From IMG/VR virus record IMGVR_UViG_2737471829_000009: a stretch of 31,211 nt of DNA. One strand, given 5' to 3'. How positions within the stretch are numbered: position 1 is the first letter of the stretch; each line of letters starts with the position of its first letter. Position numbers and translations under genes: made by a program. Under the pieces are notes generated by a model, which did not search any database, was not told the DNA's origin, and worked only from the letters and a program-made list of their open reading frames with translations. This stretch comes from a virus. Its lineage: Duplodnaviria > Heunggongvirae > Uroviricota > Caudoviricetes. Shown here in pieces: positions 1,929 to 22,577 of this stretch.

Positions 1929-1941
1929 TTTTATCCATCCC

Positions 1942-4383: not shown

Positions 4384-4842
4384 GATGGCTTCCGCTTCGT
4401 TGCAGCGCCTTATCGCGCCATGTCAGGAGCTCGGTCACGCTCAGGGAATTTAGCTCTGATGGCGGCCAGTGGAAGATCACCGCGATATCCGCCATCAGGT
4501 CATCGACCGACAGTTTTTCCGGGAAGGTCAGCGACCCGAAGCCGGTGACAAAAAACCAACCACCTTACCGGCCAGCGAAATCAGGTCTGACGCATCCAGA
4601 CGCGCGAGTTCGTGCTCGGTCAGTGCCGGATACGTCATGCGCGGCAGCACCTTAATCAGCGCATCCACGTCGGAATTTGCCAGCGAGGCCAGTGATACCC
4701 CGCGCAGGGTTCCCGCGTTCGGTTTGGTTAGCGTGACCTGCTCAATTTTCTGTTCACCGCGCATCAGCGGGGTGTCAAAAATAACGATATTCGGAGTAAC
4801 GTTTTCAGTGTCAGCAACAGCAGTCTCATTGATATTTTTCAT
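4372..4842 (-). CDS. E+E': gpE+E' fusion made by programmed -1 ribosomal frameshift
   Basis: Minus-strand heptamer T_TTT_TTG at about 4549..4555 lies in the E zero frame (GGT TTT TTG). The -1 frame continues ...LTFPEKLSVDDLMADIAVIFHWPPSELNSLSVTELLTWRDKALQRSGSHHEQ*, resembling P2 E', and ends at about 4372, overlapping the T start. Confidence 0.7.
4528..4842 (-). CDS. E: Tail assembly chaperone gpE
   Basis: 104-aa ORF between FII and T; the zero frame ends ...VVGFLSPASGR, passing through a TTTTTTG slippery site. Confidence 0.85.
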   Translation of the reverse strand: MKNINETAVADTENVTPNIVIFDTPLMRGEQKIEQVTLTKPNAGTLRGVSLASLANSDVDALIKVLPRMTYPALTEHELARLDASDLISLAGKVVGFLSPASGR

Positions 4843-4896
4843 GCGAATTTCTCATCAGCGTAAGTGACCGGCCAGCCCCGCTGACCGGTTGAGGGA

Positions 4897-5415
4897 TTAC
4901 AGGCCAATTGCCTTGCGGTGCTCTGCCATACGGTCGACGCCGTCGACTTTCAGCACCATGTTGATCACGTCAATCTCGATGACTTCTTTGTCGTCGATCG
5001 TGAGCTGGTAATAGGCGCACTCGGTCGCCATTTTGGTCGTGCCGCTTTCTCCCTGCTTGTTTTCACCGCCGTCGTATTCTTTATGACGGCCACGCATCAC
5101 CACCTCGACGGCAGAAATCGCGCCGGTGTCGTCACGCTGATAAGAGCCGGTAAAACGCAGCGGAACGCTGTCAGCACCCGGCGAGGCGTACTGCGCCCAC
5201 AATTCAATGTCAGGCAGACCGCCGAGCGTCCACTCAAGCGACAGCGCATCGTCATCGAGGCCGAGGTCAACCGACACCGCTCCCGGCATCCCGCCGCCGC
5301 GATATTTCTCCAGCTTGCGGGTCAGTTTTGGCAGGGTGACGGATTCAACAACGCCCATATAACTCAGGCCATCGTTGAACATATTCAGGTATTTCAGTTT
5401 GCGGGGTAACGCCAT
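4897..5415 (-). CDS. FII: Tail tube protein FII
   Basis: 172-aa protein directly downstream of the sheath gene; N-terminus MALPRKLKYLNMFNDG... matches the P2 FII family as recalled. Confidence 0.9.
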   Translation of the reverse strand: MALPRKLKYLNMFNDGLSYMGVVESVTLPKLTRKLEKYRGGGMPGAVSVDLGLDDDALSLEWTLGGLPDIELWAQYASPGADSVPLRFTGSYQRDDTGAISAVEVVMRGRHKEYDGGENKQGESGTTKMATECAYYQLTIDDKEVIEIDVINMVLKVDGVDRMAEHRKAIGL

Positions 5416-5427
5416 GCTCAGAGCTCC

Positions 5428-6621
5428 TTAGCTGTTGACCGAGTCTGACAGGTTCGCCAGATAGGTATCGGTGATGCGCTGGCGCAGGGTCAGATTTTCC
5501 AGCGGCGGGACGGGGGTGTAGTCGTAATCGATATACAGTTTCCCCACTTTCAGGGTCGCGGTGTCGTTCGACTCCGGGTCGTACCAGCAGAAGCCGTCAA
5601 CGAGATAGCCGTTGGTTTTCAGCTCGCGGAATTTGGCATTGATACCGGAAACGATATCGCGAATGAGGGTCGGGGTAATGGGTTTATCCATCGCCCACGC
5701 GTGCGCCTCCGCCATCGTGTCGGCCAGCACCTGCGCGGTGCGGGTGTAGTTTTCAAACAGGAAAAGCGGATCATCCGAGCAGGTACGGTTTCCCCAAAAT
5801 TTGAAACCATCATTGCGGATAAGCGTAGTGACACCAGCCTGATTCAGCAGGTTGGCATCGGTCGCTGGTTCCTGCAAATCCCACGACACGGAGGCGCTGA
5901 CGCCGGTCACTCCGTTAACGCCAACGTTAGACAGGGTTTTGTGCCAGCCGATGGTCTGGTCGATTTTGGCACGCAGGCCGAGTGCGCGCGCCGTCACCCA
6001 GGCTGTTGCTGTCGTGTTCGCCGTGGTGTCCCATGCCAGAAAATCAGGGAAGATGACCATCAGCTCACGCTGGCTGAAATTCTCGCGGTAGTCGATGGCC
6101 TCAGAAATGGTTTTACAACCCCACGCGCTGACATAGCCAAAGGCGCGCAGGCTCTGACAGGTGGACGCGAGCGCGGTCGCCACTTCCTGCGAATCCAGCC
6201 CCGGCACGCCGAGAATACGAGGCTTAACGCCGGTGACGGTCTTCGCCGTCAGCAGGGCTTTCAGCCCGGTATATTTGCCGTTTTCGTCAGTGGTGCCGAT
6301 GATATTGGAAAGGGTTTGTTTGTGCGCCGCTTCGGGGTTCTCCGGATCTTCAATACCTTCGGCCACACGCACGGCCACGATGACCGGCTTGCACTGGTCA
6401 GCGATAGCCTGCAGGGACGTCGACAGCGTGCCCTGTTTACCGGCTTTACCGATAGCACTCTGCACGTTCGTAATAAGCACCGGCTCATTGAGGGGGAATG
6501 TTTTCTCGTCAGCATCGCTGGCCGTACAGACCATGCCGATGATGGCGGTTGAAACGGTGGAAATGGTGCGGACGCCATCGTTAATCTCGATGACCTCGAC
6601 GCCGTGATGATAGTCGCTCAT
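5428..6621 (-). CDS. FI: Contractile tail sheath protein FI
   Basis: Start trimmed to MSDYHHGVEVIEINDG... (ATG at 6621); the protein is near-colinear with P2 FI as recalled, including the C-terminal YIDYDYTPVPPLENLTLRQRITD motif. Confidence 0.9.
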   Translation of the reverse strand: MSDYHHGVEVIEINDGVRTISTVSTAIIGMVCTASDADEKTFPLNEPVLITNVQSAIGKAGKQGTLSTSLQAIADQCKPVIVAVRVAEGIEDPENPEAAHKQTLSNIIGTTDENGKYTGLKALLTAKTVTGVKPRILGVPGLDSQEVATALASTCQSLRAFGYVSAWGCKTISEAIDYRENFSQRELMVIFPDFLAWDTTANTTATAWVTARALGLRAKIDQTIGWHKTLSNVGVNGVTGVSASVSWDLQEPATDANLLNQAGVTTLIRNDGFKFWGNRTCSDDPLFLFENYTRTAQVLADTMAEAHAWAMDKPITPTLIRDIVSGINAKFRELKTNGYLVDGFCWYDPESNDTATLKVGKLYIDYDYTPVPPLENLTLRQRITDTYLANLSDSVNS

Positions 6622-6715
6622 CCGTTTAACTCCGTGGTTAAGGGGTGCAACTATTTTCTGTTGTGTAAGCGACAAGCGCGATGAAACGGCGTTGGCGGGG
6701 ATACAACACAACAAG

Positions 6716-6740
6716 CAAAAAGCCCTCCGGGTGGAGGGCT
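6716..6740 (-). terminator. Rho-independent terminator after the tail-fibre operon
   Basis: Plus strand reads AAAAAGCCCTCCGGGTGGAGGGCT: an 8-bp GC-rich stem (AGCCCTCC/GGAGGGCT) with a 4-nt loop, followed on the minus strand by a T-run, directly 3' of G. Confidence 0.6.
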
Positions 6741-6744
6741 TGCG

Positions 6745-7167
6745 TTATTCAGGTACTGACGGCAGGTCGATTAACAACGGGTCGGAGGTATCAACCCGGC
6801 TCAGAAGCACGGTGTATGTCTCCCATTGCTCAAGCCGTTTTACCTCTTCGGGGGTGGCAATCCCCAGCTTAACCGCACGGCTCAGGGGAGCAATGATAAT
6901 TTCCGCCTCCTGCATGAGTGCTGTCCTCTGAGTTTCAAATTGCTCGATGAGAACGTCAGGATCAGGAGGGGGAATATCGGCCCATGTGGGAAGGCCATTA
7001 TCACCTGCAGCACGATACTTCCCTGATGGTGTTACTTTCGCTGCGAATTCATCATAAACACTGTCTTCCACCTGAATAGCGTCATCAGGCCAGTCTTCAA
7101 TATAGTCGGGAAGATACTGCATCGGATAAAATGTGTTTCGTTTAGCGCTATAGCAATAATTACCCAT
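6745..7167 (-). CDS. G: Tail fibre assembly chaperone
   Basis: 140-aa ORF immediately downstream of tail fibre gene H, the position and size of a P2 gpG-type chaperone. Confidence 0.8.
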   Translation of the reverse strand: MGNYCYSAKRNTFYPMQYLPDYIEDWPDDAIQVEDSVYDEFAAKVTPSGKYRAAGDNGLPTWADIPPPDPDVLIEQFETQRTALMQEAEIIIAPLSRAVKLGIATPEEVKRLEQWETYTVLLSRVDTSDPLLIDLPSVPE

Positions 7168-7170
7168 ATA

Positions 7171-8877
7171 TTAATACCCCACCGCTTGCCAATATACTGG
7201 AAACGAACCAGAGCCCGCTTCAATACGAAAGGATGTTTTTGTAATAGAGCCTATACGGAAGTTCTGATCGTAGCCGTTATGCCCCGTAACCTCTGTAACG
7301 GTAATGCTGTTACAGACATTAGGGAATGCGGTAGGAAAATTCACTGCTCTGTTGAAGCCAGGCGCTAACCCCCATTGGATCATAAATCCTGTACTGGCAT
7401 CTTTAAACCATCCGTTTGCAGCCTTTCCTGCTGCGTTTTTAAGTTGATAGCGCGCATCAGATTCGGCTTTTGTATAAGCCTGTCCCGCAGGGGTATAACT
7501 GCCTTTCGGCTGAAAGGCTCCGCTTGCCCATGCTTCGGTTGCCAGTTGCACCACGGCATTACTGGCAGTGTGGCGCATATAGGGTTTGGCGACATTACCT
7601 GAGTTAAAGCCAGCGGTAACGCATCCATCCTGAGAAATAGATCCAATCTCAGCCGGAGTGGGCTTATTTGCCCCGTCGTATTGTTTTGTCCAGGCAGACC
7701 AGACACTCCCATACAGCGTCCTGATATAACTCCGTGAGTTGTTATAAACACGGTAAATTTGAGTTATCCCGGCGTGTTTATACACTTCCAGAGAACCAGC
7801 CAGTGCTTCTGGATAATTCTTCCCGGCCAGCGCCTGTGCGTTATTTGGCTGATAATAGAGACCGGGTACGGTGTATGAGTTCAGGTCAAGAGCATTCCCG
7901 ATACCCACCGCCTGACCGTTGAAAATATCCTGTGCGGTCACACTGATATCAGCGCTCAGCGAGTGGCCATTCACTTTGCGGCCTGAGGGTACACGTCCGC
8001 TGGCGTTGTCATTTGCCGCCTTAACCGCTTTCGGGGTCGCAGCAAGCACCTCTGATACGCTGTCGGTGGCGCTACTGAGCTGGACAATCCCCTTCTGTGC
8101 CGTGGTCGCGTCCTGAGCCGTGTATTTACCTTTCGCAAGGTCATGTGCCGCCTTGACTGCTTTCGGCGTCGCGGCGAGAGTCTCAGACACACTGTCGGTG
8201 GCGCTACTGAGCTGGACAATCCCTTTCTGCGTCGTGGTCGCGTCCTGAGCCGTGTATTTTCCTTTCGCAAGGTCATACACCACTTTGACCGCTTTCGGTG
8301 TTGCTGCGAGCGCCTCAGACGTGCTGTCGGTCGCACTGCTTAACTGCGTGAACCCTTTTTCTTTCAGCGTGGCGTCAGGATGGCGGCGGGACTGCTCATG
8401 CTCTGCGAGTTTATCGTCAACATAATCCTGCGTCGCCATAACCAGTGTCGTATCGATAGACAGCTCGACGGTGTCGATATCGCTCACCATGATCACCATG
8501 CGCAGCGTCTGCGCGCGACCTGACCCTTCCGCCAGTTCGGGCTTGTAGCTCTCCGCCATGTTACCGACCGCAATCAGCGTGCCGGTGTCGTCGTATAGAC
8601 CCATTTCACGCAGCCAGAAACCGCCGGTCTCCGGGGGGATCACCAGCTCCGCCACGACATAATTTTTATGTTTTTTGTCCTGGCTGATTTTGTTCAGGGC
8701 ATGACGCCAGACCTCATTGACGAGTTTTGTCTGACTGGCGTCCGGCTCGGGCAGCTTACCGCCACCGTCCCCGACGGCCATCTCCGCAAAATTGACTTTC
8801 TTCCCGTTCGGGAGCGTCGCCGCCGCCAGTTTTTCTGCACCGGCTCGGGTGATAACGGTTTTATATTTCACTGTCAT
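7171..8877 (-). CDS. H: Tail fibre protein
   Basis: 568-aa protein with a conserved gpH-like N-terminus (MTVKYKTVITRAGAEKLAAATL...), internal tandem fibre repeats and a divergent C-terminal receptor-binding region. Confidence 0.85.
   Translation of the reverse strand: MTVKYKTVITRAGAEKLAAATLPNGKKVNFAEMAVGDGGGKLPEPDASQTKLVNEVWRHALNKISQDKKHKNYVVAELVIPPETGGFWLREMGLYDDTGTLIAVGNMAESYKPELAEGSGRAQTLRMVIMVSDIDTVELSIDTTLVMATQDYVDDKLAEHEQSRRHPDATLKEKGFTQLSSATDSTSEALAATPKAVKVVYDLAKGKYTAQDATTTQKGIVQLSSATDSVSETLAATPKAVKAAHDLAKGKYTAQDATTAQKGIVQLSSATDSVSEVLAATPKAVKAANDNASGRVPSGRKVNGHSLSADISVTAQDIFNGQAVGIGNALDLNSYTVPGLYYQPNNAQALAGKNYPEALAGSLEVYKHAGITQIYRVYNNSRSYIRTLYGSVWSAWTKQYDGANKPTPAEIGSISQDGCVTAGFNSGNVAKPYMRHTASNAVVQLATEAWASGAFQPKGSYTPAGQAYTKAESDARYQLKNAAGKAANGWFKDASTGFMIQWGLAPGFNRAVNFPTAFPNVCNSITVTEVTGHNGYDQNFRIGSITKTSFRIEAGSGSFPVYWQAVGY
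8040..8385 (-). repeat. Three tandem 132-bp (44-aa) repeat units inside the tail fibre gene
   Basis: Near-identical DNA copies (TGTCGGTGGCGCTACTGAGCTGGACAATCCC...) begin at about 8061, 8193 and 8325; they encode LSSATDS.SE.LAATPKAVK...KGKYTAQDATT.QKGIVQ. Confidence 0.7.
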
Positions 8878-8888
8878 TGTGTTCTCAC

Positions 8889-9419
8889 TTATCCGGGGTA
8901 AACCGTGATGATGTCGCCGTCATAGGTCAGGGCTCCGGTGAAGAGATAACCCGGTATGTCCTGGATAATATTCAGGCCAATAAGATGGCGGCTGGCTGGC
9001 TTTGCATCGGCGATCAGCCTTTCCATTTCGTAATACATTTCCTCGGTGATGCCGGTCTCCAGCACGCCGATATCAAGGCGAAACGTCCCCGGCGGGTCGT
9101 TCGTCTCCCACCATTCCGTCACGTTAATCAGATACCCGAGCGGCTCGACCACACGACGCACCGCGCCTATCGTCCCTTTGTGCGCATGGATAAACCACGC
9201 GCTGCGGATAACCTCGCGTTTGGTTTCTTCCGGCCAGCTCTCATCCCAGCGGTCAACAGAAAACGCCCAGGCAAGCCACGGCAGCAGGTTTGCGGGGCAG
9301 TTGTCAGGGTTCCAGAGGCGACGCAGCGGGACGGGGGTATTTTCGATATCCGCGCAGGCGCGCGCCGCCGCCACCTCAAGCGGCGACGAACCCACTGGCA
9401 GCAGACGGGTATCACTCAT
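8889..9419 (-). CDS. I: Baseplate protein gpI
   Basis: 176-aa ORF between J and H; P2 order V-W-J-I-H-G is preserved. Confidence 0.85.
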   Translation of the reverse strand: MSDTRLLPVGSSPLEVAAARACADIENTPVPLRRLWNPDNCPANLLPWLAWAFSVDRWDESWPEETKREVIRSAWFIHAHKGTIGAVRRVVEPLGYLINVTEWWETNDPPGTFRLDIGVLETGITEEMYYEMERLIADAKPASRHLIGLNIIQDIPGYLFTGALTYDGDIITVYPG

Positions 9420-10320
9420 CGTTGCCCCCGATCTTTACGCTGTACTCGGTGCAATATGACGCCTGCGTCTCATTGAGTACGATGTCAGCGACCGGCGCGA
9501 CAAGTTCGACACGCTGCACGCCCTCGACGTGAAGCGCGGCATAGATGGCAGACTTGCGGATGTCACGCCCGAGCCGGTGCTGCGCGTTGATATAGGTCTG
9601 TAGCTTCGCTTTTGCCGCACTGAGCACTGGCTCACTTTCGGGGCCGGGATAAAGATAAAGCGCGGCATCGATGGCGTAGTCGACAATGACCGCCGACTGC
9701 ACGGTCACGCGGTCAGCAACCGGCCTCACATCCTCATCGTTCAGCGCATTACGCACCACTGCGAGCAGTTCCCCGGATGCCGCGCCGTTATTCTCCCTGG
9801 ACAGTACCGACACGGTCACGCAGGCGGGCTCCGGGCTGATAACAGAAATATCGGCGACCCGTCCGTCAGCACTGCGGCCATGAAACTGATACGCACCGGT
9901 CGACCCGGCCACGCTCATTCCCTCAAAAGCCTGTTGAATACGCAGACGGTAATCGGTGTCCGATTCCATGACGGCAGGCGTTGGCGGCAGCGTGGTCTCA
10001 TCAGCAGGCGTAATAACGAGACGCTCAACGTTGTAATTTGCGCCGAGGTTATCGAGGTCATGACCGGCAGCGTAAGCCAGCATCACCGCCCGTGCCGACT
10101 CATTGACGCGCTGACGCCAGATAACCTCCCGATAAGCATTTTCCTGCAGCAGTTTCACGATCGGCTCTGATTCAAACGTCAGCGTGCGCGCGACCGCGTC
10201 CTGTTGCTCTTCGGGATAGAGTGAGACGAGCGTCGCCTTTCGCTCTGTCAGGATGGTTTCATAGTCCAGCTCCTCCACAACATCAGGTGCGACGAGCTGG
10301 CTCAGGTCAACAATAGCCAT
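9412..10320 (-). CDS. J: Baseplate assembly protein gpJ
   Basis: 302-aa protein; N-terminus MAIVDLSQLVAPDVVEELDYETILTERKATLVSLYPEEQQ closely matches P2 gpJ as recalled. Confidence 0.9.
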   Translation of the reverse strand: MAIVDLSQLVAPDVVEELDYETILTERKATLVSLYPEEQQDAVARTLTFESEPIVKLLQENAYREVIWRQRVNESARAVMLAYAAGHDLDNLGANYNVERLVITPADETTLPPTPAVMESDTDYRLRIQQAFEGMSVAGSTGAYQFHGRSADGRVADISVISPEPACVTVSVLSRENNGAASGELLAVVRNALNDEDVRPVADRVTVQSAVIVDYAIDAALYLYPGPESEPVLSAAKAKLQTYINAQHRLGRDIRKSAIYAALHVEGVQRVELVAPVADIVLNETQASYCTEYSVKIGGNDE

Positions 10321-10325
10321 AACGT

Positions 10326-10676
10326 TTAACTCAGTGGAAGGGTGATAGAAAAAGGCTGGCCTGATGCCGAACGCGTGCCGGTCATATCGACGTACATCGC
10401 GCCGTCATCCTCTCCGCGTTCAAAGGTGATGGTCGTCAGGCTCACGCGCGGCTCCCACTTCTGGATCGCGGAATAACACGCGGCCATAATCTGCAGGCGC
10501 AGTGCCGGGGTCTGCGGCTGGTCCATCAATGCCGACAGCAGCGAGCCGTATTCACGACGCATGACACGCGAGCCCACCGGCGTGACCAGAATGTCGCGCA
10601 CGCTCTGCCTGATATGCTCAACCTCAGAAATACTGAGCCCGGTATGACAGTTCATTCCCAGATAGCTCGTCGTCAT
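10326..10676 (-). CDS. W: Baseplate protein gpW
   Basis: 116-aa ORF downstream of V whose start overlaps the V stop (ATGA coupling). Confidence 0.85.
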   Translation of the reverse strand: MTTSYLGMNCHTGLSISEVEHIRQSVRDILVTPVGSRVMRREYGSLLSALMDQPQTPALRLQIMAACYSAIQKWEPRVSLTTITFERGEDDGAMYVDMTGTRSASGQPFSITLPLS

Positions 10677-11314
10677 TTTGTCCCCACCGTTCTGTCATCG
10701 CCCCGCTTCACGCCGCCGTGGTCGTGGTCATCCACCTGCACGCCGTTGGATTTAAACGTGCCGCCGCCGTGCTCGATGTTGCCGCTCATCTTCCCGCCCT
10801 TTTGCACCTCAAGCGTGGCCGTGGTCAGTTTGTTGGTACAGACCACCTCGGGGGTATCGAGCGTAATGCGGGTGGACGCTTTGACCAGTACCAGCGGCAC
10901 CGTTGCGGTAATGGCGTCCGACGCGGTGACGTCAGCGGTTTTGATGCCACTCACCGTGAGTGACCCGCTTTCGGGTTCGTACTCGATAACCGCTCCGTCA
11001 GGAAAGGAAACGTGAAAGGCATCAGGCGAGGCCGACGGCGCAGGATGGTCATCAGAGAAAATACCGGGCAGCACAAAGGCGGTATCGAGCTCGCCGCCAA
11101 TGGCAAGAATCAGCACCTGCTCGTCAACCGAGGGAGCCCACCAGACACGCGAGCGACCAGCGCGGCAGGTCAGCCAGTTTAACCAGGTGGTTTGCATGCC
11201 GCCGGTCTGGACACGACAAAGCCCCTCATCGGGATTGACTGCAGTCACAATGCCGGTGCGGATAAGGTTACGGATCGCGCGGGCGATATCCTGAATGGAA
11301 TTTAAAGTATTCAT
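10673..11314 (-). CDS. V: Baseplate spike protein gpV
   Basis: 213-aa protein, first gene of the V-W-J-I-H-G operon; N-terminus MNTLNSIQDIARAIRNLIRTGIVTAV. Confidence 0.85.
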   Translation of the reverse strand: MNTLNSIQDIARAIRNLIRTGIVTAVNPDEGLCRVQTGGMQTTWLNWLTCRAGRSRVWWAPSVDEQVLILAIGGELDTAFVLPGIFSDDHPAPSASPDAFHVSFPDGAVIEYEPESGSLTVSGIKTADVTASDAITATVPLVLVKASTRITLDTPEVVCTNKLTTATLEVQKGGKMSGNIEHGGGTFKSNGVQVDDHDHGGVKRGDDRTVGTK

Positions 11315-11738
11315 GGGGAAAGGATGCCGCCGGGCAAGGCCAACGGCAATCGGGCGGGGTTTTGTTAGCTATGAAACAACAACTATCCACTAAGGCATAC
11401 GATCTTATCCAGACTTGGCAGTTTTGATGGGGATGAAAGCAGAACGAAGCTGTGAACAATACACAAAAAGTTGAAACTCATAGTTTTAACAATTATTATC
11501 GCAAAACCAATCGATACGAGTTAATCTAACAAATATTGATTCATGTTAATTTATGTCGTCATACCCACCTAAGGTAATAACACAGATGCTTACAACACCA
11601 ATAAATAACATTGAAGAAGCCTATTAAAATGATTAAATTAAAAAATTATTATTCAAGCATGTATGTTCATGTTTGAAACTCAGCACTTTTGAAAAATAGA
11701 CATTGGACGAAGTTTGGTTAGTAAAAGAGAGGTTAACT

Positions 11739-13370
11739 ATGACAAACAATCCTTTTGTAGATTTTATTGAATTTCTAACTAATAAACATGGCGAAGAAGT
11801 TTGGGTTACTGTTTACAAGACGGAAGAGATCAAGAACACTGATCATGACGGCGGGATGTATTGTGCATTAGTCAGCAAAGAAAAAACTGAAAAAGCAATG
11901 AATCAGGCTGGTTGGGATTTGATGATTGGTAGTGGTGGACCTGGTATTTGCACATCATATCAAGATGGGAAAAGCATAAATACATATTATAAAAATTCAG
12001 ATAATGGTTTTCTCAGGCTTATTCTTGTTCGTGATTTCCATGGTAGAAAAGAAAAATATATAGAGATCCTTGAAGAGTTTCGTCTTTTTCACAATTTATA
12101 TTATGATAATAAAAGTGGTTCATACTTTAGCTTTGATGACTCCGGTGATGAAATCGAAGTAATCAAAGTGCAAAGCAATGAGGTAAAAATCCGTAGGAGA
12201 TATCTACATTCTTTTATGGCCGCCAGTCAAATGAATCTCCTTCTTTATTTTGAGTTAACGAGACACTATAATCATAATTTGACCTTTGCATGCAATGAAA
12301 AAAACGAATCAACCATATACACTATTTATTCAGGGAAATCTTACTCAAAAGGATATATATCTTTCTCAAGAATCATGGGAAAAAAAATAATTAAATGTGA
12401 GTCAATAGACAAGTGTAACTCATGGCCATTTGAATCAAAAAAAACATATCAAGAATTTATTATAGGTGGCGACACTGACGAACCAATAACTTTTTCATGC
12501 AATCCGGATAAATTAGCTAATTATTTTGGTGCCAACCCAGAAGCCCCGCATTATTTGACTCCTGTGTTTTTTAAAAAGGAAGTAATGCAAAAATATTACA
12601 ATTCCTCTGACTATAGTATTACCGATGGGCATCTTTATAGAAAAGGTGCATGGGATCTTCGATTCGATAATAACTCACCTAATCATATATCAGTTTTCTT
12701 AGGTGATCTTGGCAGGGATTTACCTGAGAAAGAACAAATTTACTGGAAAAGTTTTAATTTAATCCCTGACGGTAGAAAAATTAGCAAAACAAATTTTGAG
12801 CGTAGTTTTTTAGGGCGTGTCTCCGACGCAGAAAACCCTGAGCATAAATTTAAAAATAAATTCAAATCACTACAGAAATACTGGAGCAATCGGTATAAAT
12901 GGGATCTATTCCTACCTTTATCCGAGAAAGATGAGCATTTTTTCAACTCATTAAGATCAATGCTTACGAAGGAGCAGTCGGAATTTGACGCACAGGTATT
13001 GGCGTTAACGAAAGTCACTATTGATTCAATTAATGTTAAATCTCTTAGAAATCACCTCAAAGTTACTGATGCAAGCATAAAATCAATAGGGTTAATGGAG
13101 AGTCTTCTTGATAGATTACACTCGCCAAACACATCAACACTAGTAAGTCTTATGCGAGGTATTCAATCAGTAAGATCCACCGGCGTTGCACATAGAAAAG
13201 GTACTGACTACGAAAAAACAATGTCAAAGCTGAATATTAACCATGATGATTATCAGAGAGAATTTGATCAATTACTATTGGGCATGGTTTTTCTATTTGA
13301 AGAAATAATGCGATTGGATGCTGAGAAAGGTGATGAAAAAACCGAGTCAACTACTGATAAACAATTGTAG
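11739..13370 (+). CDS. Hypothetical AT-rich cargo protein (543 aa) with a C-terminal HEPN-like R-x5-H motif; candidate abortive-infection/defence effector
   Basis: Only long plus-strand ORF in the late region, AT-rich with A/T-rich codon usage. Start trimmed from the track's TTG (11703) to the ATG at 11739, which has an AAGAGAGG RBS. C-terminus contains VRSTGVAHRKG; the rest of the protein has no motif I recognise. Confidence 0.75.
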   Translation: MTNNPFVDFIEFLTNKHGEEVWVTVYKTEEIKNTDHDGGMYCALVSKEKTEKAMNQAGWDLMIGSGGPGICTSYQDGKSINTYYKNSDNGFLRLILVRDFHGRKEKYIEILEEFRLFHNLYYDNKSGSYFSFDDSGDEIEVIKVQSNEVKIRRRYLHSFMAASQMNLLLYFELTRHYNHNLTFACNEKNESTIYTIYSGKSYSKGYISFSRIMGKKIIKCESIDKCNSWPFESKKTYQEFIIGGDTDEPITFSCNPDKLANYFGANPEAPHYLTPVFFKKEVMQKYYNSSDYSITDGHLYRKGAWDLRFDNNSPNHISVFLGDLGRDLPEKEQIYWKSFNLIPDGRKISKTNFERSFLGRVSDAENPEHKFKNKFKSLQKYWSNRYKWDLFLPLSEKDEHFFNSLRSMLTKEQSEFDAQVLALTKVTIDSINVKSLRNHLKVTDASIKSIGLMESLLDRLHSPNTSTLVSLMRGIQSVRSTGVAHRKGTDYEKTMSKLNINHDDYQREFDQLLLGMVFLFEEIMRLDAEKGDEKTESTTDKQL

Positions 13371-13451
13371 AAATAAGATTACCTCAACGTATTTTTGCAT
13401 TAGATAAATAAGCACTCACACACTTTAAACTCATAAAAACATATTAAATAG

Positions 13452-13471
13452 CGCCCTAACAAAATAGGGCG
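13452..13471. terminator. Hairpin between convergent genes (cargo ORF and S)
   Basis: CGCCCTA-ACAAAA-TAGGGCG (7-bp stem) in the 119-bp gap; the flank is A/T-rich on the minus strand, consistent with termination of the S-containing late operon. No strong T-run on the plus strand. Confidence 0.4.
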
Positions 13472-13489
13472 TCACTTAATCAGCTAATT

Positions 13490-13936
13490 TTAACCAATAT
13501 AATTAAAGATGAGATTTTCAATAAGTTTTTTATCGTCTTGCCCAAATCCGAGTAACTGGCGTTCCGGGTATTGCACGTCCTGAGCATGAGGGTTAGGCCG
13601 GTCTTTGAGTCCGAGCTGATGAATCTGCGCAATACGTTGCACTTTGCCGGTAAATTCCACCACAGCAGCATCATTGCGGCCACTGGCTTTCATGTAGCGA
13701 CTCGTTCGCAGCTTCTGAAACATCGCCCGTTTTATTCGCCCTTTTTTCGCCCTGAGCGGCTGGCGTTTTCGGGTCTCATACGGTGAGCCGTCCGGCGCTT
13801 TTTGTTGCCTGATACGTTGCTGCTGTGCGGCGCGCAGTTGTTTCGCTATCTCTGCGGCCAGCCTGCGCCGCGACGCCGGTGACAATGCCCCGATAAGCCC
13901 CGCCATCTGGTCATCAAAAGGCGTTAATTCACTCAT
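13490..13936 (-). CDS. S: Tail completion / virion morphogenesis protein gpS
   Basis: 148-aa basic protein directly after R, the position and size of P2 gpS. Confidence 0.8.
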   Translation of the reverse strand: MSELTPFDDQMAGLIGALSPASRRRLAAEIAKQLRAAQQQRIRQQKAPDGSPYETRKRQPLRAKKGRIKRAMFQKLRTSRYMKASGRNDAAVVEFTGKVQRIAQIHQLGLKDRPNPHAQDVQYPERQLLGFGQDDKKLIENLIFNYIG

Positions 13937-14396
13937 CCCATTTACTCACCAGCTCGCCATTGATATAGAGCTCGGTCGGACGGGTGACAGGCTCCGGCAG
14001 TGGCGGCTCCGGGGCATAGCTGACGTGTAACGCACCGTTTTCTTCCCGGACAAGGGTGCGCTCAGTCAGTTGCAGGCTGATACTGATATCAACATTATCC
14101 CCGTCATTTAAATCCATCTGGAATCGATAGCCCTTTCTGCGCCCCTCATCGAGCGTGCAGATATCCGGCTGGTTTTCTCGCAGCCACGCCGCCACCGGCA
14201 CAAAAATCAGGTCGGGGTCACCGACAAAGTCACACACGATCACATTCAGCGTGTATTTCTTCTCATGGGACAGCGAAGCCGCGAGACGCGCATCGATATT
14301 CCCCTCATCGGCAAAGATGCGCATCATCTCGGGGTTATTCAGGAGCTGCGGGACGGCGTCATTCAGCGCTTTGCGCAGGCTTTTCATTTTCTGCAT
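13929..14396 (-). CDS. R: Tail completion protein gpR
   Basis: C-terminus EPPLPEPVTRPTELYINGELVSKWDE matches P2 gpR as recalled. Start trimmed to the ATG at 14396 (AGGA RBS); the ATG at 14387 is an alternative. Confidence 0.8.
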   Translation of the reverse strand: MQKMKSLRKALNDAVPQLLNNPEMMRIFADEGNIDARLAASLSHEKKYTLNVIVCDFVGDPDLIFVPVAAWLRENQPDICTLDEGRRKGYRFQMDLNDGDNVDISISLQLTERTLVREENGALHVSYAPEPPLPEPVTRPTELYINGELVSKWDE

Positions 14397-14649
14397 CGAT
14401 TCTATCCTGACAGTCTTTGATGGTTTCGACCTTAATCGCACAGGCGGTGAGCGCATGCTCAAGCCTGCGAATATCGGCACTCAGATCACCGTTAGTGACG
14501 GGCTCGCTTTCCGGCATCGGGCAGAGGCTCACCTTCGGGCAGGCGTTGTAAACAACGGGCGGCGGAGGCGCAGCCGGTTCGGATGTGCAACCGGCGCACA
14601 GCATCAGGCAACTTATCGCTGTACCAGCGGCGTAACGTCTCATTTTCAT
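14359..14649 (-). CDS. lysC: LysC-type outer-membrane spanin (Rz1-like lipoprotein)
   Basis: 96-aa ORF in an alternative frame overlapping the 3' end of lysB and the 5' end of R. Signal peptide with lipobox (LMLCAGC) followed by a proline-rich stretch (PAAPPPPVV). Confidence 0.7.
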   Translation of the reverse strand: MKMRRYAAGTAISCLMLCAGCTSEPAAPPPPVVYNACPKVSLCPMPESEPVTNGDLSADIRRLEHALTACAIKVETIKDCQDRIDAENEKPAQSAE

Positions 14650-14920
14650 TCATCAGCCTCGTTATGGTTTCTTCCCGCCTTGCCGCCTGCTCACCGGCAA
14701 CGGCCAGCTCATCACCGAACCTGACCTGCGCATCCTCATTCGCCCTGGCGATTCGCTGCGATATGGCAAGCTGATTTTTCAGCATGCCAATCGTCGTCTT
14801 TTGCGCACTGGCGACGCGGTTCGCTTTCTCAAATGACCGGGATAAGTTCTCATTTTCATGTCGCAGCCACAGCAACCCGGCCAGCACAGCAACCAGAAGG
14901 ATCACAATGAATCTGGACAC
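14492..14920 (-). CDS. lysB: LysB-type inner-membrane spanin (Rz-like)
   Basis: 142-aa protein with one N-terminal transmembrane helix (FIVILLVAVLAGLLWL) and a charged coiled-coil periplasmic domain, with lysC embedded. Start appears to be GTG. Confidence 0.75.
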   Translation of the reverse strand: MSRFIVILLVAVLAGLLWLRHENENLSRSFEKANRVASAQKTTIGMLKNQLAISQRIARANEDAQVRFGDELAVAGEQAARREETITRLMNENETLRRWYSDKLPDAVRRLHIRTGCASAARCLQRLPEGEPLPDAGKRARH

Positions 14921-15333
14921 ACCCCCTCCCCCTCGATGCGCTGACGGTAAGCAGAGCGCACAGCTTTAAGCACAAGGACACAAATCAGATACAGCAGCGC
15001 TGTAAGCACCCATCCCGCGCCGACCAGACAGGCAAAAACGCCAGCAAAAATAAGCAGCGACCAGAAGCGACGCAGCGGGGAAGGTTTGCGACAAAAAACC
15101 AGCCGAAAAATCCTCATTAACGTATCATTCAGCGGGATATTCTTTTGCCGGTTTCCCTGCCAGTGCTCATAGGCAGCCACACCGGCGAGGCTGGCTGCAA
15201 TGCAGACCAGACAGCCAAACAGCGCCCATACAGCAACGAAATTGACTGCCACGCTCTGCGGGTTCGTCAGCCCCATAAACAGCATCAGCGCCAGCAGGAA
15301 ATCAAAAATCAGTGAGGTAATGTGTTGTTTCAT
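14902..15333 (-). CDS. lysA: LysA-like multi-pass membrane lysis regulator
   Basis: Start trimmed to MKQHITSL (ATG at 15333, ATGA overlap with the endolysin stop). Several hydrophobic helices; position matches P2 lysA. Confidence 0.7.
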   Translation of the reverse strand: MKQHITSLIFDFLLALMLFMGLTNPQSVAVNFVAVWALFGCLVCIAASLAGVAAYEHWQGNRQKNIPLNDTLMRIFRLVFCRKPSPLRRFWSLLIFAGVFACLVGAGWVLTALLYLICVLVLKAVRSAYRQRIEGEGVCPDSL

Positions 15334-15842
15334 TGAGTAACTCCTTTCATGCAATACGCCAGCTCCCGCGCGCGGCGGTTCTCCAGCCCTTTGTTTTTTG
15401 TGCCGTTGACATACACCCAGCGGGTGAGCTGGTCGCACGCCTGCCACCACTGATGACGTTTGATATACGAGACCAGCGTCGACCTGCAGGCCGCACCGGT
15501 TCCGACGTTAAACGCAAAACTGACCAGCGAGTCATAGACGCGCGGTGGCATATCCACCGGCACACAGACTGCGAGCCGTTGCTCGACGTTGAGCACATCG
15601 GCAACGAGATTCTCCGCCGCCTGTCGCTCTGTAATATCCCCTTTCGGGACCACCCCGGCAGTGTGGCCGATGCCCGACGTCCACACTCCCGCAATGCACT
15701 GGTAAGGTGTCAGGCGACATCCTTCGAGATCGGCAATCAGTGCCAGCCCCTCGGGCGAGGTGTTAAGCAGACGAAAGTCAGGCACCAGTGCTGCCAGCGC
15801 CAGCACGGCGGCCACACTGCAGCGTTTAATGATTGAGCTCAC
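15330..15842 (-). CDS. SAR-type endolysin (phage lysozyme, P1 Lyz / P21 R-like)
   Basis: N-terminal weakly hydrophobic signal-anchor-release segment (CSVAAVLALAALVP) followed by a lysozyme core with the EGCRLTPYQCIAGVWTSGIGHT catalytic-region pattern. The 5' end is likely a GTG. Confidence 0.8.
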   Translation of the reverse strand: MSSIIKRCSVAAVLALAALVPDFRLLNTSPEGLALIADLEGCRLTPYQCIAGVWTSGIGHTAGVVPKGDITERQAAENLVADVLNVEQRLAVCVPVDMPPRVYDSLVSFAFNVGTGAACRSTLVSYIKRHQWWQACDQLTRWVYVNGTKNKGLENRRARELAYCMKGVTQ

Positions 15843-16047
15843 GGGCAGCCTCCTTATCGAGTCCGAGTGAGGTCAGATAGCGGTAGGTTTTGCGCTTAAA
15901 CCAGTAATTCGTCAGCGCGGTAAAAATGGCGCAGGCACTCCCCACATAGAGCGCCAGCTTTTCGGGGGACATCGCCCCGAAATACGCCAGCCCCACGGCC
16001 AGCCAGTAAGCGATAAACGTCGTGATTTTTTCCACACTCAGTCCCAT
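15826..16047 (-). CDS. Holin (pinholin-like, two TMDs)
   Basis: 73-aa protein with two hydrophobic helices and a basic C-terminal tail (FKRKTYRY), immediately upstream of the SAR endolysin. Confidence 0.65.
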   Translation of the reverse strand: MGLSVEKITTFIAYWLAVGLAYFGAMSPEKLALYVGSACAIFTALTNYWFKRKTYRYLTSLGLDKEAARELNH

Positions 16048-16241
16048 AAATTCACCGTCTCGGTTTTCGGAGCGCTGTCAGTTTCGGGCAGTTCGATTGC
16101 CGTGCCGTGCGGCAGAATAACGCCCAGCTCCGACAGCCCCGGATTCGCCTGCAGCACCGTTTCAACGACGCCCTCAGTGCGCCCGTAATACCGGGCGCAA
16201 ATCGCATCGAGGGTGTCGCCCTGCATCGCCCTGACCTTCAT
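16038..16241 (-). CDS. X: Tail protein gpX
   Basis: Trimmed to the 67-aa product MKVRAMQGDTLDAICARYYGRTEGVVETVLQANPGL...VNLWD, which matches P2 gpX in length and sequence as recalled. ATG overlaps the L stop. Confidence 0.85.
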   Translation of the reverse strand: MKVRAMQGDTLDAICARYYGRTEGVVETVLQANPGLSELGVILPHGTAIELPETDSAPKTETVNLWD

Positions 16242-16747
16242 CAGATTTGACCGACAATACAGCGCGGCTTGTCCTGAATACGCGCCACAGACCAGCGCAT
16301 ATCCCGCCACAGCTCATCGATAACCGCCTCGGTGCTTTCCGCCTTGCGGTCGCCTTTTGCCGTCGCATCGATGCCGCGATAGCGCTCAAACAGCGTGGCA
16401 CTGGTCATGGCGCAGACGGCGCGGAAATAGTGGAAACAGCGTACGCTTTCGCCGTCGATATCATCGGCAGGCACATCGGCCAGCGTGTCATGACCTGCGG
16501 CCATCTGCTCAACCCGCCACAGGGCAAGCTCCGCATTGGTTTCAGCCATACCGGCTTTAATCGCATCATTCAGGCGCAGCGCGGAAACGGTCTGCTCCAG
16601 ACGCATCAGCTCGCGCACACGCTTCGGATCCACATCAGGGAAAAAGAAGGTGTTTTTTATTACCGGCTCGCTCACGCCCGGTGGTGGTATCACCACGCCC
16701 GGCACATCCTGCGGCTCTTTTTTTGGCTCAATAATCACTGTCGTCAT
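16241..16747 (-). CDS. L: Capsid completion protein gpL
   Basis: 168-aa ORF after M in the O-N-M-L head operon. Confidence 0.85.
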   Translation of the reverse strand: MTTVIIEPKKEPQDVPGVVIPPPGVSEPVIKNTFFFPDVDPKRVRELMRLEQTVSALRLNDAIKAGMAETNAELALWRVEQMAAGHDTLADVPADDIDGESVRCFHYFRAVCAMTSATLFERYRGIDATAKGDRKAESTEAVIDELWRDMRWSVARIQDKPRCIVGQI

Positions 16748-16853
16748 GACAACCTCGGGTAATGGGTGGGCGGTGGGCGGTGGACGCCGGTCGCAGTCAG
16801 GGCAATCAATACCCGCATTGACCGGCGTGCCGCCCGGCTCGGGGAGCGCTCTG

Positions 16854-17609
16854 TTAACCTGCGGCTTTTGCCGCTTTCGGGGGACGCCCGCGCCGTGCCG
16901 CCGGTTTGGCGGCAGGTTTGCGCGTGCGCGGTTTATTCTGTTTGGGTGCGGGTTCTGGTTTGGGTTTCAGCGCGCGCTCGAGCTGTTCAATATCTTTTTT
17001 CACACCGACAGTTCGCTCTAACTGGATCGCACGCTGCAGGTGCGCCAGCGCGTCAGTCAGACGGCCAGCCTCACGCAGCACGTAGCCGGTAATTTTGTGC
17101 AGCTTCGCGCGCACGATGTCCGGCATGTCTGCCCGTTCGGTCAGTGCGATGGTGTCGAGCAGGAGCTGCAGCCCGACAGGCTGTTTCGCATCGAGCAGGC
17201 GCTGCGCTGACAGGGCGACCTCTTCGGCCAGCAAATACGGCGTGGTGCGGCGGTGGCCGCCGGTCGGCATGGTCAGGCCATAGGTCATCGCATAGCGGGC
17301 AATCTCCAGCGCACTGGCGATGTCATCCGCATCGAGACGCCACAGCATGACGGTCATGACAATGTCATCCTGCGCCCCTTTTCCGGCGCTGAGGACACCC
17401 GACACCCACGGCAGATAGAACGGCAGCAGCTCACGCTTTTTATCTGCCTTGCGTTTATTGGAGCGGATTTGTTTTAACGTGCGACAGTCTGCGGCCAGCT
17501 TGACGAGCATCTGCTCATAGGCAGTTGCATTGCGCAGCGGAGCAGCAGCCCGCCGCGCATTCTCAGAGGCCGAGACCCGCATCATGTGACGCGCTGCGGG
17601 ACTCGTCAT
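16854..17609 (-). CDS. M: Terminase endonuclease (small) subunit gpM
   Basis: 251-aa protein with a basic Pro/Lys/Arg-rich C-terminal tail; position between N and L. Confidence 0.85.
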   Translation of the reverse strand: MTSPAARHMMRVSASENARRAAAPLRNATAYEQMLVKLAADCRTLKQIRSNKRKADKKRELLPFYLPWVSGVLSAGKGAQDDIVMTVMLWRLDADDIASALEIARYAMTYGLTMPTGGHRRTTPYLLAEEVALSAQRLLDAKQPVGLQLLLDTIALTERADMPDIVRAKLHKITGYVLREAGRLTDALAHLQRAIQLERTVGVKKDIEQLERALKPKPEPAPKQNKPRTRKPAAKPAARRGRPPKAAKAAG

Positions 17610-17612
17610 GGC

Positions 17613-18680
17613 TTATTCCCCGCTTTCCGGTGCGGCAGGTGCGGTGAAGTCACCGAGATTGATGTTTTCAATCAGGCAACCGGCGGCGTAAGCCTCGACC
17701 ACATAGTCAATATTCATCGACTCGTAGTTTTCGACACGGTCCTTTTTCGGCTCCTCGATGATGGCGCGGCGGTGTGCATCATCCATGAAGTAAATCGACA
17801 GGTTATCGAGGCGAGTCACCATCAGGGCATTCGCCGGGAAATACGGCACGCGCACAGCAGGCAGGTTGCCGATACGCTTCTGGCTGATGATGATGTCAGC
17901 GGCCAGCGTTTCGCTGTTTTCCTGCGCCTTGTTAACCAGCGGGAAATATTTATCCGCCATCAGCTTACGGCCAGTGATAACGACGAGCTCCGGGTCATCC
18001 TGATAAATCTCATCAATCAGGTTGGTGGTCGCATCCATCACCAACGCATCGAGGTTTTCATAGTCACCGTTTTTACCCACGCGGATCACATCGGAAATGA
18101 CCTTGCCGTCATCATCGGTGACGTTGGACATCACGCGCGCGGCAGCTTCATTGCGGTATTTCTGCAGCCAGCCCACCGCGACATCCTGCAGCATCGGGTT
18201 CGTTTTGCGGTTGGAAGTCTCCGCGCGGGTGATACCGTTGAAACCGGCCATGATGAAATCGAGCGACTGGCGCTTGATAATCGCGTCACGGATACGGGTC
18301 TGAAAGTCCTGGAATCGCGCCCACAGGTCTAGCTGTTTGTAACGAATATGGAAATCAAAGTTGATTTGCGCGCATTCATATTTGTTGGATTCGAGCGCAG
18401 TGAAATCAGCGGTCTTACGCTCATCATCGGCGGCGGTGTCCGTGGTGCTCGCAATCGTACCGTTGACGCCAACCCCGACTTTTTCGCCTTTCAGCTCGTC
18501 GACCGGCACGATATTAATTTTGGTCAGAAACGAGGATGACGCCTGCAGGGTGGTCATCAGCGTCTGCGTCACGGACGGCTCAACGGTGAATTTTTTCACC
18601 ACGTCATCGGTGTCGACGCCGTTCAGTTCTGCCACGCGGGACAGGTAAGCATTGAATTTAAAGCGGGTATCTTTACGCAT
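17613..18680 (-). CDS. N: Major capsid protein gpN
   Basis: Start trimmed to MRKDTRFKFNAYLSRVAELNG... (ATG at 18680); matches the P2 gpN N-terminus as recalled. Confidence 0.9.
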   Translation of the reverse strand: MRKDTRFKFNAYLSRVAELNGVDTDDVVKKFTVEPSVTQTLMTTLQASSSFLTKINIVPVDELKGEKVGVGVNGTIASTTDTAADDERKTADFTALESNKYECAQINFDFHIRYKQLDLWARFQDFQTRIRDAIIKRQSLDFIMAGFNGITRAETSNRKTNPMLQDVAVGWLQKYRNEAAARVMSNVTDDDGKVISDVIRVGKNGDYENLDALVMDATTNLIDEIYQDDPELVVITGRKLMADKYFPLVNKAQENSETLAADIIISQKRIGNLPAVRVPYFPANALMVTRLDNLSIYFMDDAHRRAIIEEPKKDRVENYESMNIDYVVEAYAAGCLIENINLGDFTAPAAPESGE

Positions 18681-18741
18681 TGTTATTCCTGTTTTTCTAA
18701 AAAGGGGCATCAGGCCGGGTGACGCGCACCCGGCAGGTCTG

Positions 18742-19596
18742 TCAGCAGTTGGTCAGCAGCTCGTCACCGGTCCCGCCTTTCGATTTCTCGCGGCGCGGCT
18801 GGCGATAGCTTTCGGTGTTATCGAGGGAGCTTTTCAGGGCGTTAAGCGCCTGCGCGCTTTGCGTGGTCTGGCTGGTCACGTCCTGCTTTAGCTGTGCGAA
18901 GGCGGTTTCCAGCTCAGTGACGCGCGTCTCGGTGGCGGTCAGGTTGGTCTGTACCTGCTCAGAGACGGCGGTCACCGCCTCATGCACATCAGCAAGACGG
19001 GAGTCATCGCTGACCTGTTTGCGACTGAAAATCGATTTGACCTTGTCGGTCAGGCTGTTGAGCATGGTGTCGGGGACATCTTCGAATTCCAGCTCAGCAA
19101 GGGAGGCCACCGAGAAGAGGTCGCCCGGCTGGTCTTTTTTACCGGCGAGCGGGTTCTGCGCAGCACGGCTGCAGAATTCGAGGTATTCCGTGCCGAGGCT
19201 TGCCGGGTCATCGGTCACGGCGAGACCAATCAGATAGCATTTACCGTTATTTGAGAAATTCGGGCGAATTTCCATGGAGGTGTAAACCTTCTGACCGGCA
19301 CGCACCATGCTCACCAGTTCATCAAGCGGGGCAATCCTGGCAAACAGCGCCTTTTTGCCGTTCAGCGCAGAGTCATCACTGATGATTTCCGCTTTCACTT
19401 CGGTCACATCGCCGTAGCGTTTAAACGGACTGTCAGGCCAGAGGCTTTTGATGTGTTCGAGGTTAATACGGCAACCATAGACGCGCGGGTCAAAGGTATC
19501 CGCCATGTCCTGAATGTCATCACCGTTGATGACACGACCATCGCAGGTGTCACCCTCGACGCCGATGCGAAACCATTTAGAAACTTTCTTTGCCAT
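18742..19596 (-). CDS. O: Capsid scaffolding protein gpO
   Basis: 284-aa protein, first gene of the O-N-M-L operon and divergent from P; C-terminal half is Gln/Thr/Ser-rich coiled-coil-like. Confidence 0.85.
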   Translation of the reverse strand: MAKKVSKWFRIGVEGDTCDGRVINGDDIQDMADTFDPRVYGCRINLEHIKSLWPDSPFKRYGDVTEVKAEIISDDSALNGKKALFARIAPLDELVSMVRAGQKVYTSMEIRPNFSNNGKCYLIGLAVTDDPASLGTEYLEFCSRAAQNPLAGKKDQPGDLFSVASLAELEFEDVPDTMLNSLTDKVKSIFSRKQVSDDSRLADVHEAVTAVSEQVQTNLTATETRVTELETAFAQLKQDVTSQTTQSAQALNALKSSLDNTESYRQPRREKSKGGTGDELLTNC

Positions 19597-22551: not shown

Positions 22552-22577
22552 AGCCATCATAGATGGCTTTTTTTTTC
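22552..22577 (+). terminator. Rho-independent terminator after Q (probably bidirectional)
   Basis: AGCCATC-ATA-GATGGCT hairpin followed by a T9 run on the plus strand, 8 nt after the Q stop; it sits between convergent Q and the cargo operon. Confidence 0.65.

Follow-up and report, generated by a model that had tools for sequence, protein, structure and literature searches.

The Avs3 protein SeAvs3 (PDB 8DGC) is composed of a Cap4 PD-(D/E)xK nuclease, a STAND ATPase, an alpha-helical TPR region, and a C-terminal sensor that is rich in beta-strands. This sensor, which EcAvs2 also has, binds the phage large terminase at the ATPase domain. The sensor of another family, Avs7, is reused without a STAND module in Dsr1, together with SIR2, and in a Streptomyces HEPN protein (bioRxiv 10.64898/2026.01.04.697583). 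ApeA, a single-gene HEPN RNase, forms a doughnut-shaped decamer or dodecamer and cleaves tRNA anticodons (Gao 2020; bioRxiv 10.64898/2026.01.26.701840). The window analysed here, 31,211 nucleotides (nt) of the IMG/VR virus record IMGVR_UViG_2737471829_000009, is a nearly complete P2-like prophage that carries a 543-amino-acid (aa) open reading frame (ORF; ATG at 11739, stop at 13370, plus strand) between the late genes S and V. This ORF is best explained, with moderate confidence, as a horizontally acquired, stand-alone abortive-infection RNase that has an Avs3-type sensor and no STAND ATPase.

HEPN domains are defined by an Rx4-6H motif at the end of a helix and in the loop that follows it, and they are expected to have a polar residue after the arginine, an acidic residue in helix 2, inserts between helices 2 and 3, and an often kinked helix 4 (PMC3710099). 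The AlphaFold2 (AF2) model of the 543-aa protein (predicted local distance difference test score, pLDDT, 86; predicted template modelling score, pTM, 0.71) was beta-rich over residues 1-345 and all-alpha over residues 350-536. The motif, which reads QSVRSTGVAHRKGT at 13164-13205, was located in the all-alpha part. R479 belongs to the final turn of helix 465-482 and H485 to the loop at 483-488, after which a new helix begins at residue 489. Short helices (433-440 and 449-459) intervene, and the final helix is split (489-497 and 505-536). R479 was found in 261 and H485 in 263 of the 264 members that were aligned using hmmalign, and the divergent alignment A2 retained them in 64 and 63 of its 64 sequences, respectively. 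The residue after the arginine is polar (S480, 246/264), although N, D, or H is typical at this position, and A484, R486, K487, and G488 were also strongly conserved. E415 (249/264) and D417 (242/264) supply the acidic residues in helix 413-426, which on the model would correspond to HEPN helix-2. The predicted structure thus fits each point of the HEPN expectation, and the near-invariance of both motif residues argues for an active enzyme. Residues 350-536 are predicted to be a HEPN RNase with R479 and H485 as its catalytic residues.

No Pfam HEPN profile matched the family at E ≤ 1 (40 members) or E ≤ 0.1 (64 members), which is weak negative evidence because HEPN families are very divergent. 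The only one of the 264 members without the histidine was P0184 (L009, 157-2730, 857 aa), in which the motif is mostly lost (LRTDILKSSAG); it has an additional C-terminal PNP_UDP_1 domain that matches the PADLOC "PN-superfamily effector" and PDC-M60C, and it is possibly a single case of effector replacement. A sequence-only reading of the window had pointed to the C-terminal R-x5-H motif, numbering R479 and H485 as R491 and H497, from an alternative TTG start at 11703 that extends the ORF to 555 aa; both the conservation among homologues and the position in the AF2 model bear this claim out.

In a fold search with the same model, the unique and strong structural match of the N-terminal domain was SeAvs3. 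The fold search reports no aligned residues, and the part of SeAvs3 that is matched was identified by elimination as the C-terminal sensor, because the PDB contains many Cap4-like and P-loop folds, which would have given further matches, and the TPR region is all-alpha. We infer the matched residues from sequence comparison with a full Avs3a from Escherichia coli, found by DNA search (2,092 aa, 99.3% identical to the SeAvs3 seed). The family hidden Markov model (HMM), with filters off, aligned to Avs3a at only one place, positions 2024-2063 against profile positions 156-195 (E 0.0035, one sequence), where RFIKSALATFKMDLILEVDVDRY of Avs3a is aligned to kylkeflaakqmaLalyfdirrf of the profile. 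An hhalign comparison with 44 Avs3 C-terminal homologues gave a co-linear alignment of 181 columns (residues 3-200 against Avs3a 1858-2085, P 0.024), and the use of residues 1-254 only gave 147 columns (19-179 against 1871-2049, P 0.0068). The corresponding controls, the C-terminal half and a reversed template, had P values of 0.2 and 0.38, respectively, and in a block-shuffle control the observed score was reached in 2 of 60 shuffles (empirical p about 0.03). One family member also had a weak PADLOC Avs3a match. The sequence signal is weak alone, yet it agrees with the structural match in place and length, and the N-terminal domain is quite likely homologous to the Avs3 C-terminal sensor. The protein probably has a beta-rich domain of the Avs1-3 sensor type, and a central STAND NTPase with Walker A/B motifs was not found in it.

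The N-terminal region was the least conserved part of the protein (0.42, versus 0.65 for residues 255-345 and 0.47 for the HEPN domain). Furthermore, in distant relatives on plasmids the match begins only at residue ~140 or ~270, and their N-terminus is divergent or absent. This low conservation and loss are consistent with a sensor role. The same reading had called most of the protein unrecognisable: searches of the 543-aa protein against Pfam, PADLOC, NCBIfam, PHROGs, and PDB sequences indeed gave no match except a PHROG match with E 0.057, which is not meaningful, and the family profile gave only chance matches to PDB sequences, whereas structure comparison brought out the likeness to the Avs3 sensor. 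The STAND ATPase, TPR region, and Cap4 nuclease of Avs1-3 proteins are all without counterpart here. In comparison with SeAvs3, the order is inverted (sensor N-terminal, effector C-terminal), the effector is HEPN, and the protein is roughly one-fourth as large. Identity with Avs was rejected, given the lack of a STAND ATPase, and the NTPase-driven tetramerisation that activates Avs proteins is inapplicable to the 543-aa protein. The proteins with an Avs7 sensor provide a precedent for reusing an Avs sensor without STAND and with a SIR2 or HEPN effector, although Avs7 is another family whose bilobed sensor recognises the major capsid protein. As a separate observation on Avs3 itself, the first 93 aa of SeAvs3 (the Cap4 nuclease) retrieved only CBASS (cyclic-oligonucleotide-based antiphage signalling system) Cap4 fragments, and in Salmonella Dortmund (L053, 10001-14288) Cap4-like short ORFs head operons with E1/E2 (Prok-E2_B/ThiF) and JAB genes that resemble type II CBASS. 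This shows that the Avs3 effector is closely related to CBASS Cap4.

The family is large, with 2,244 word-indexed homologues of the 543-aa protein. An exhaustive profile search retrieved 2,456 clusters (50% identity) at E ≤ 1e-3 and 984 at E ≤ 1e-30, and almost all of the best 150 matches listed were full-length proteins of roughly 500-570 aa. The family spans at least seven phyla, and its genome loci were found in Gamma- and Betaproteobacteria, Cyanobacteria, Campylobacterota, Firmicutes, Verrucomicrobia, and Patescibacteria, including plasmids and integrative elements. About 30 of the 32 genomic loci lie outside P2-like phages; placement at the S-V junction was found only in the E. coli prophage and in a P2-like prophage of Burkholderia pseudomallei. 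The Burkholderia homologue is 57% identical and reads in the same direction as the late genes, opposite to the E. coli copy, an arrangement that points to independent capture. The neighbourhoods of 37 loci comprised 127 ORFs and contained no conserved partner gene; the domains seen most often were serine recombinase (7), rve integrase (3-4), and tyrosine integrase (2), and after these came HsdS, Uma2, and ResIII. Single loci were located beside SIR2-HerA and contact-dependent inhibition (CDI) toxins, between transposases, in an integrase island, and near a SAVED protein on a Pseudomonas aeruginosa megaplasmid. The recombinase-rich neighbourhood, the lack of a constant partner, and the lack of a match in sequenced phages point to a stand-alone gene that mobile elements carry as cargo rather than to a virion component. 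In two loci, L018 (6651-9311) and L037 (3360-4891), the family gene was seemingly disrupted, with the tblastn match in two pieces; this could be decay or insertion, as expected for a costly or toxic gene.

P0218 (L008, 2888-5539, 883 aa), from one metagenomic contig, is a distant member that is fused in frame ahead of a complete NsnA (9.2e-58); an AAA_15/DUF3696 ATPase gene and a third gene lie downstream, and the whole set is within a type I restriction-modification (R-M) island. It resembles a type II Menshen system in which the whole family protein is the N-terminal module of NsnA. Extra sensor domains of Menshen NsnA proteins are found at this same position, and the fusion is thus also consistent with a sensor role. 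An NsnA (PD-T4-2_A, DUF262) partner, which characterises PD-T4-2 and Menshen, was not found beside the 543-aa ORF; the fusion occurred only in the distant P0218, and the NsnA-like gene of the window itself lies 10 kb away in another hotspot and has its own HEPN partner. On a Streptomyces plasmid (L050, 3970-4800), a 276-aa relative consists of residues ~270-513 only, that is, the middle domain and HEPN. A DUF4238 gene adjoins the family relative in both actinobacterial loci, L050 and the Rhodococcus plasmid L051, and these loci may represent a minimal two-gene version of the system.

The location of the ORF corresponds to that of orf30 in phage P2, a nonessential antisense gene of 261 aa that is flanked by the terminator of the O operon and the P_V activator site; the slot is therefore the gap between two late operons. 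Orf30 and the 543-aa protein showed no sequence relationship, although both genes are AT-rich, antisense, and in the same physical slot. A megablast search of 5,426 complete E. coli genomes detected the cargo in 11, and its place was between V and S in every case. On the V side, homology to related P2-like prophages of E. coli ends at ~11384-11388, and it returns at ~13512-13529 in the 3' end of S. The V-side break falls ~70 bp upstream of V, and the promoter region of V is thus retained; in P2 the activator binds 42-69 nt upstream of V. The relatives in E. coli contained 1.16-2.4 kb of other DNA in the slot, with five different cargos, including an antisense 309-aa ORF in EC11, a 597-aa ORF in A15, a Tin homologue in GPT24-02 (L049, 740-1453; PADLOC, 2.1e-88), and a co-directional pair of NsnA (6.6e-80) and HEPN genes in KV7 (L047, 832-2446). 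Across prophages, the slot thus holds Tin, NsnA with HEPN, or the 543-aa family.

In P2, tin is located at the old/tin site, as indicated by its name and the literature, and published surveys of defence hotspots focus on the old/tin (TO) and Z/fun sites, although a 2026 survey noted defence hotspots "within the late genes". Tin and NsnA-HEPN pairs occur at either site, and defence cargo apparently moves between the S-V slot and the old/tin hotspot. The window has a second AT-rich island at this hotspot (22576-24324, minus strand, GC content 0.32-0.37), between the portal gene Q and the replication genes. It encodes a 379-aa NsnA/PD-T4-2_A-like DUF262 (GmrSD_N) protein (PADLOC NsnA, 2.9e-76) and a 202-aa partner with weak matches to RiboL-PSP-HEPN (1.7e-4, under the Pfam cutoff) and PD-T4-2_B (2.5e-3); the prophage seems to carry two HEPN-based systems. 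The sequence-only reading had taken the ORF for inserted cargo that looks like a moron at the P2 orf30 position, and had suggested that the position may be an under-appreciated variable site. The breakpoints and the other cargos of relatives agree with the acquisition and with the variability. As a variable site, the slot was already appreciated, orf30 being one of three horizontal-transfer regions in P2-like phages (PMC3091744), whereas its use for defence cargo is less explored than its variability. What is new here is that the slot holds recognised anti-phage genes.

That reading had compared the architecture with ApeA- and Abi-type abortive-infection proteins, and the likeness to ApeA proved to be one of architecture only. 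Both are encoded by a single gene and have ~500-580 aa, with a C-terminal HEPN domain, predicted in the 543-aa protein, that has inserts around four core helices and for which the closest solved HEPN is HepT (5YEP/7AE8); in both, the non-catalytic N-terminal two-thirds would gate the nuclease, and both occur in R-M islands and on mobile elements. In contrast, ApeA has alpha-helical N-terminal (catenin-like) and Mid (PafA-like) domains that pack against a split HEPN, and it has a deoxydinucleotide activator (bioRxiv 10.64898/2026.01.26.701840), and such domains were not found in the 543-aa protein. Neither the PADLOC ApeA model nor the Pfam HEPN_Apea and ApeA_NTD1 models matched the query or any of 104 members that were scanned. 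Membership in ApeA was therefore rejected on the lack of a model match and the beta-rich N-terminus. An ApeA-like mode of action is a different matter: a ligand-gated HEPN nuclease could bind a nucleotide or nucleic-acid fragment in a pocket of the middle domain and HEPN, with an oligomerising or structural N-terminus. In ApeA, a single chain with a C-terminal HEPN, deoxydinucleotides bind a conserved pocket away from the active site, and the middle domain of the 543-aa protein (residues 255-345) is the most conserved block of the family, with a mean conservation of 0.65 versus 0.42-0.47 elsewhere. D296, D310, N311, D323, and E332, as well as S349, R355, D398, and N432, are nearly invariant. 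Distant relatives retain this block together with HEPN, as does the minimal Streptomyces protein, and no structural match for it was found outside the family; the middle domain is perhaps a coupler or a ligand site. Furthermore, a beta-rich ApeA-NTD1 of ~300 aa fused to an ApeA-type HEPN has been described (Anantharaman et al. 2013, PMC3710099), and UniRef100_A0ABN7ZI77 (P0083) is named "ApeA N-terminal domain-containing protein" in UniProt, a match that was not reproduced. The family may have been glimpsed computationally in 2013 as this aromatic-rich ApeA-NTD1, whose example, Cyanothece PCC7424_5050, was not found among the plasmid matches. The failure of all ApeA models and the mostly alpha-helical nature of characterised ApeA speak against this explanation, which also leaves the N-terminal SeAvs3 match unexplained and is considered unlikely.

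The genomic context could also be read as that of a toxin or addiction module, or of a general factor in competition between mobile genetic elements, which would stabilise its element or oppose plasmids and other elements rather than infecting phages. Serine recombinases, transposases, and integrases are the commonest neighbours, the gene occurs on plasmids and integrative elements and is disrupted in two copies, and HEPN toxins are common in toxin-antitoxin systems (PMC3710099). However, no conserved antitoxin gene or MNT partner was found; an RNA antitoxin, tandem RNA repeats, and a small companion ORF were likewise not found in the slot, where Rfam gave no match and no other gene adjoins the ORF. 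The fusions of the family are to defence modules (NsnA and a PNP effector), and the relatives carry known anti-phage genes in the same slot, which makes a toxin or competition role quite improbable. A non-catalytic or non-defence protein, such as a virion or tail accessory, a lysogenic-conversion factor, or a HEPN-like nucleotide-binding regulator, would fit the position among tail and baseplate genes and the lack of a family-model match. This is highly improbable, given that almost all loci are outside P2-like phages, that neither PHROGs nor sequenced phage genomes gave a meaningful match, that orf30 at this site is nonessential in P2, and that both catalytic residues are near-invariant.

For the preferred explanation, an abortive-infection RNase with an Avs3-type sensor, we infer a defence function and the metal-independent RNase activity typical of HEPN, together with a trigger and an activation mode that might operate as follows. 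A lysogen would express the cargo gene from its own signals, and the N-terminal Avs3-like domain would bind a component of an infecting phage. Analogy with Avs3 and Avs2 makes the large terminase the favoured candidate, although the chances stand somewhat against this specific trigger. The middle domain would couple or co-sense, and HEPN would be switched on, probably through dimerisation or higher oligomerisation or rearrangement, because a HEPN active site is formed between the two subunits of a dimer. The RNA that is then cleaved would likely be tRNA anticodon loops or mRNA; translation would stop, and the infection would be aborted. Such a protein would resemble ApeA, HepS, and DARNA, which are stand-alone HEPN RNases that are gated by an infection cue and all cut tRNA. 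Sequence relationship with HepS or DARNA was not detected, and PADLOC PD-T7-3 did not match the 543-aa protein. HepS, a HEPN abortive-infection protein of the Gifsy-1 prophage (PDB 9OIK), is small, with a solved chain of 218 aa, and in DARNA/PD-T7-3 the HEPN is N-terminal, whereas the C-terminal domain is all-alpha and binds ssDNA; DARNA/PD-T7-3 and Upx were rejected as identities on account of their different architectures.

The presence of Tin and NsnA-HEPN in the same slot of relatives is counted as support for a defence role, and the SIR2-HerA and R-M neighbours elsewhere are a defence-like context, in keeping with the abortive-infection role that the sequence-only reading had suggested. 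Several points weigh against this explanation. The mapping to the Avs3 sensor depends on elimination and weak sequence signals, and a sensor-like fold does not show terminase binding, to which the TPR region of Avs3 also contributes. The actual ligand site could be the conserved block at residues 255-345, as in ApeA. Defence genes appear next to the family now and then, not systematically (two HsdS and a few others among the 127 ORFs), and tblastn in 50,697 sequenced phage genomes gave no match. The prophage also encodes its own terminase (19763-21532), and self-activation would need to be avoided. The complete version of this model, a STAND-less pattern-recognition receptor in which an Avs1-3 terminase sensor acts through the middle domain on the HEPN RNase within one 540-aa chain and spares the terminase of its own prophage, is tentative and rather doubtful.

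The ORF is no chance event, as it is 1.6 kb long in DNA of 33% GC and has many homologues. The annotation of E. coli S42 in RefSeq has an identical start (WP_052318713.1, "hypothetical protein"). The S42 genome carries a twin prophage (L006, 6702-37904) that extends from an ogr-like regulator gene to the integrase and lies between pflB and pflA; its tail-fibre gene is annotated as a pseudogene and is followed by a "pyocin knob domain" ORF. All long ORFs in 298-19596 of the window are on the minus strand (late genes) except the cargo ORF, the GC content is 0.32-0.36 over 11501-13500 and 0.53-0.61 on either side (flanks ~0.57), and a ribosome-binding site precedes the ATG (Table 1), all as noted from the letters alone. 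Sigma-70-like sites in the AT-rich segment were not above chance (6 found versus 9.2 expected). In P2, a terminator is annotated at a relative position that matches the hairpin after S, and this hairpin is possibly also a terminator for the convergent cargo gene. Among insertion-scar repeats in the cargo flanks, nothing was found beyond an imperfect 22-nt direct repeat of 77% identity (core AAACTCATA; 11461-11482 and 13414-13435) that brackets the cargo gene; it is probably due to chance in AT-rich DNA, but could be a recombination scar.

Table 1. Coordinates of the cargo gene, its predicted domains, and the surrounding features in the window.
Feature	Position	Strand	Basis or remark
Baseplate gene V	10673-11314	-	Flanking gene
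Conserved stretch upstream of V, presumed P_V late promoter and activator site	11315-11384	-	Presumed from position
Swapped cargo segment, AT-rich island of ~2.1 kb in the S-V/orf30 slot	11385-13511		GC content and megablast breakpoints
Sigma-70-like promoter candidate, TTGAAA-17-TATTAT	11471-11499	+	10/12; candidate for the cargo gene
Shine-Dalgarno GAGAGG	11727-11732	+	Direct sequence reading; 6 nt 5' of the ATG
543-aa ORF, uncharacterised large family	11739-13370	+	
Beta-rich N-terminal domain, residues ~19-200	11793-12338	+	Avs3 C-terminal sensor-like
Small alpha/beta middle domain, residues 255-345	12501-12773	+	Most conserved block of the family
All-alpha C-terminal domain, residues 350-536	12786-13346	+	Predicted HEPN RNase
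Rx5H motif, R479-S-T-G-V-A-H485	13173-13193	+	Predicted catalytic motif
GC-rich hairpin followed by T-run, after S	13452-13471	-	Counterpart of the P2 O-operon terminator
Gene S, virion morphogenesis	13490-13936	-	Flanking gene

The analysis adds the proposed Avs3-type sensor, a measure of how large and anonymous the family is, and the evidence for the orf30 slot as an active defence hotspot; the proposed domain combination is new. If the explanation is true, a very large family that has no Pfam, PADLOC, or NCBIfam model would gain a testable function in HEPN-based abortive infection, and it would offer a compact system for asking how an Avs-type sensor activates an effector without the STAND ATPase that is currently thought to drive oligomerisation, as well as a test of whether terminase sensing reaches beyond Avs1-3 and Upx. 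The S-V gap would function as a defence hotspot and trade cargo with the classical old/tin site, and surveys confined to the two classical hotspots would miss part of the defence repertoire of P2-like phages. If the more specific receptor model is also true, this family, with ~2,400 clusters and members in at least seven phyla, would count as one of the more widespread defence families still untested, and Avs-type sensing of phage proteins could trigger an effector without NTPase-driven oligomerisation.

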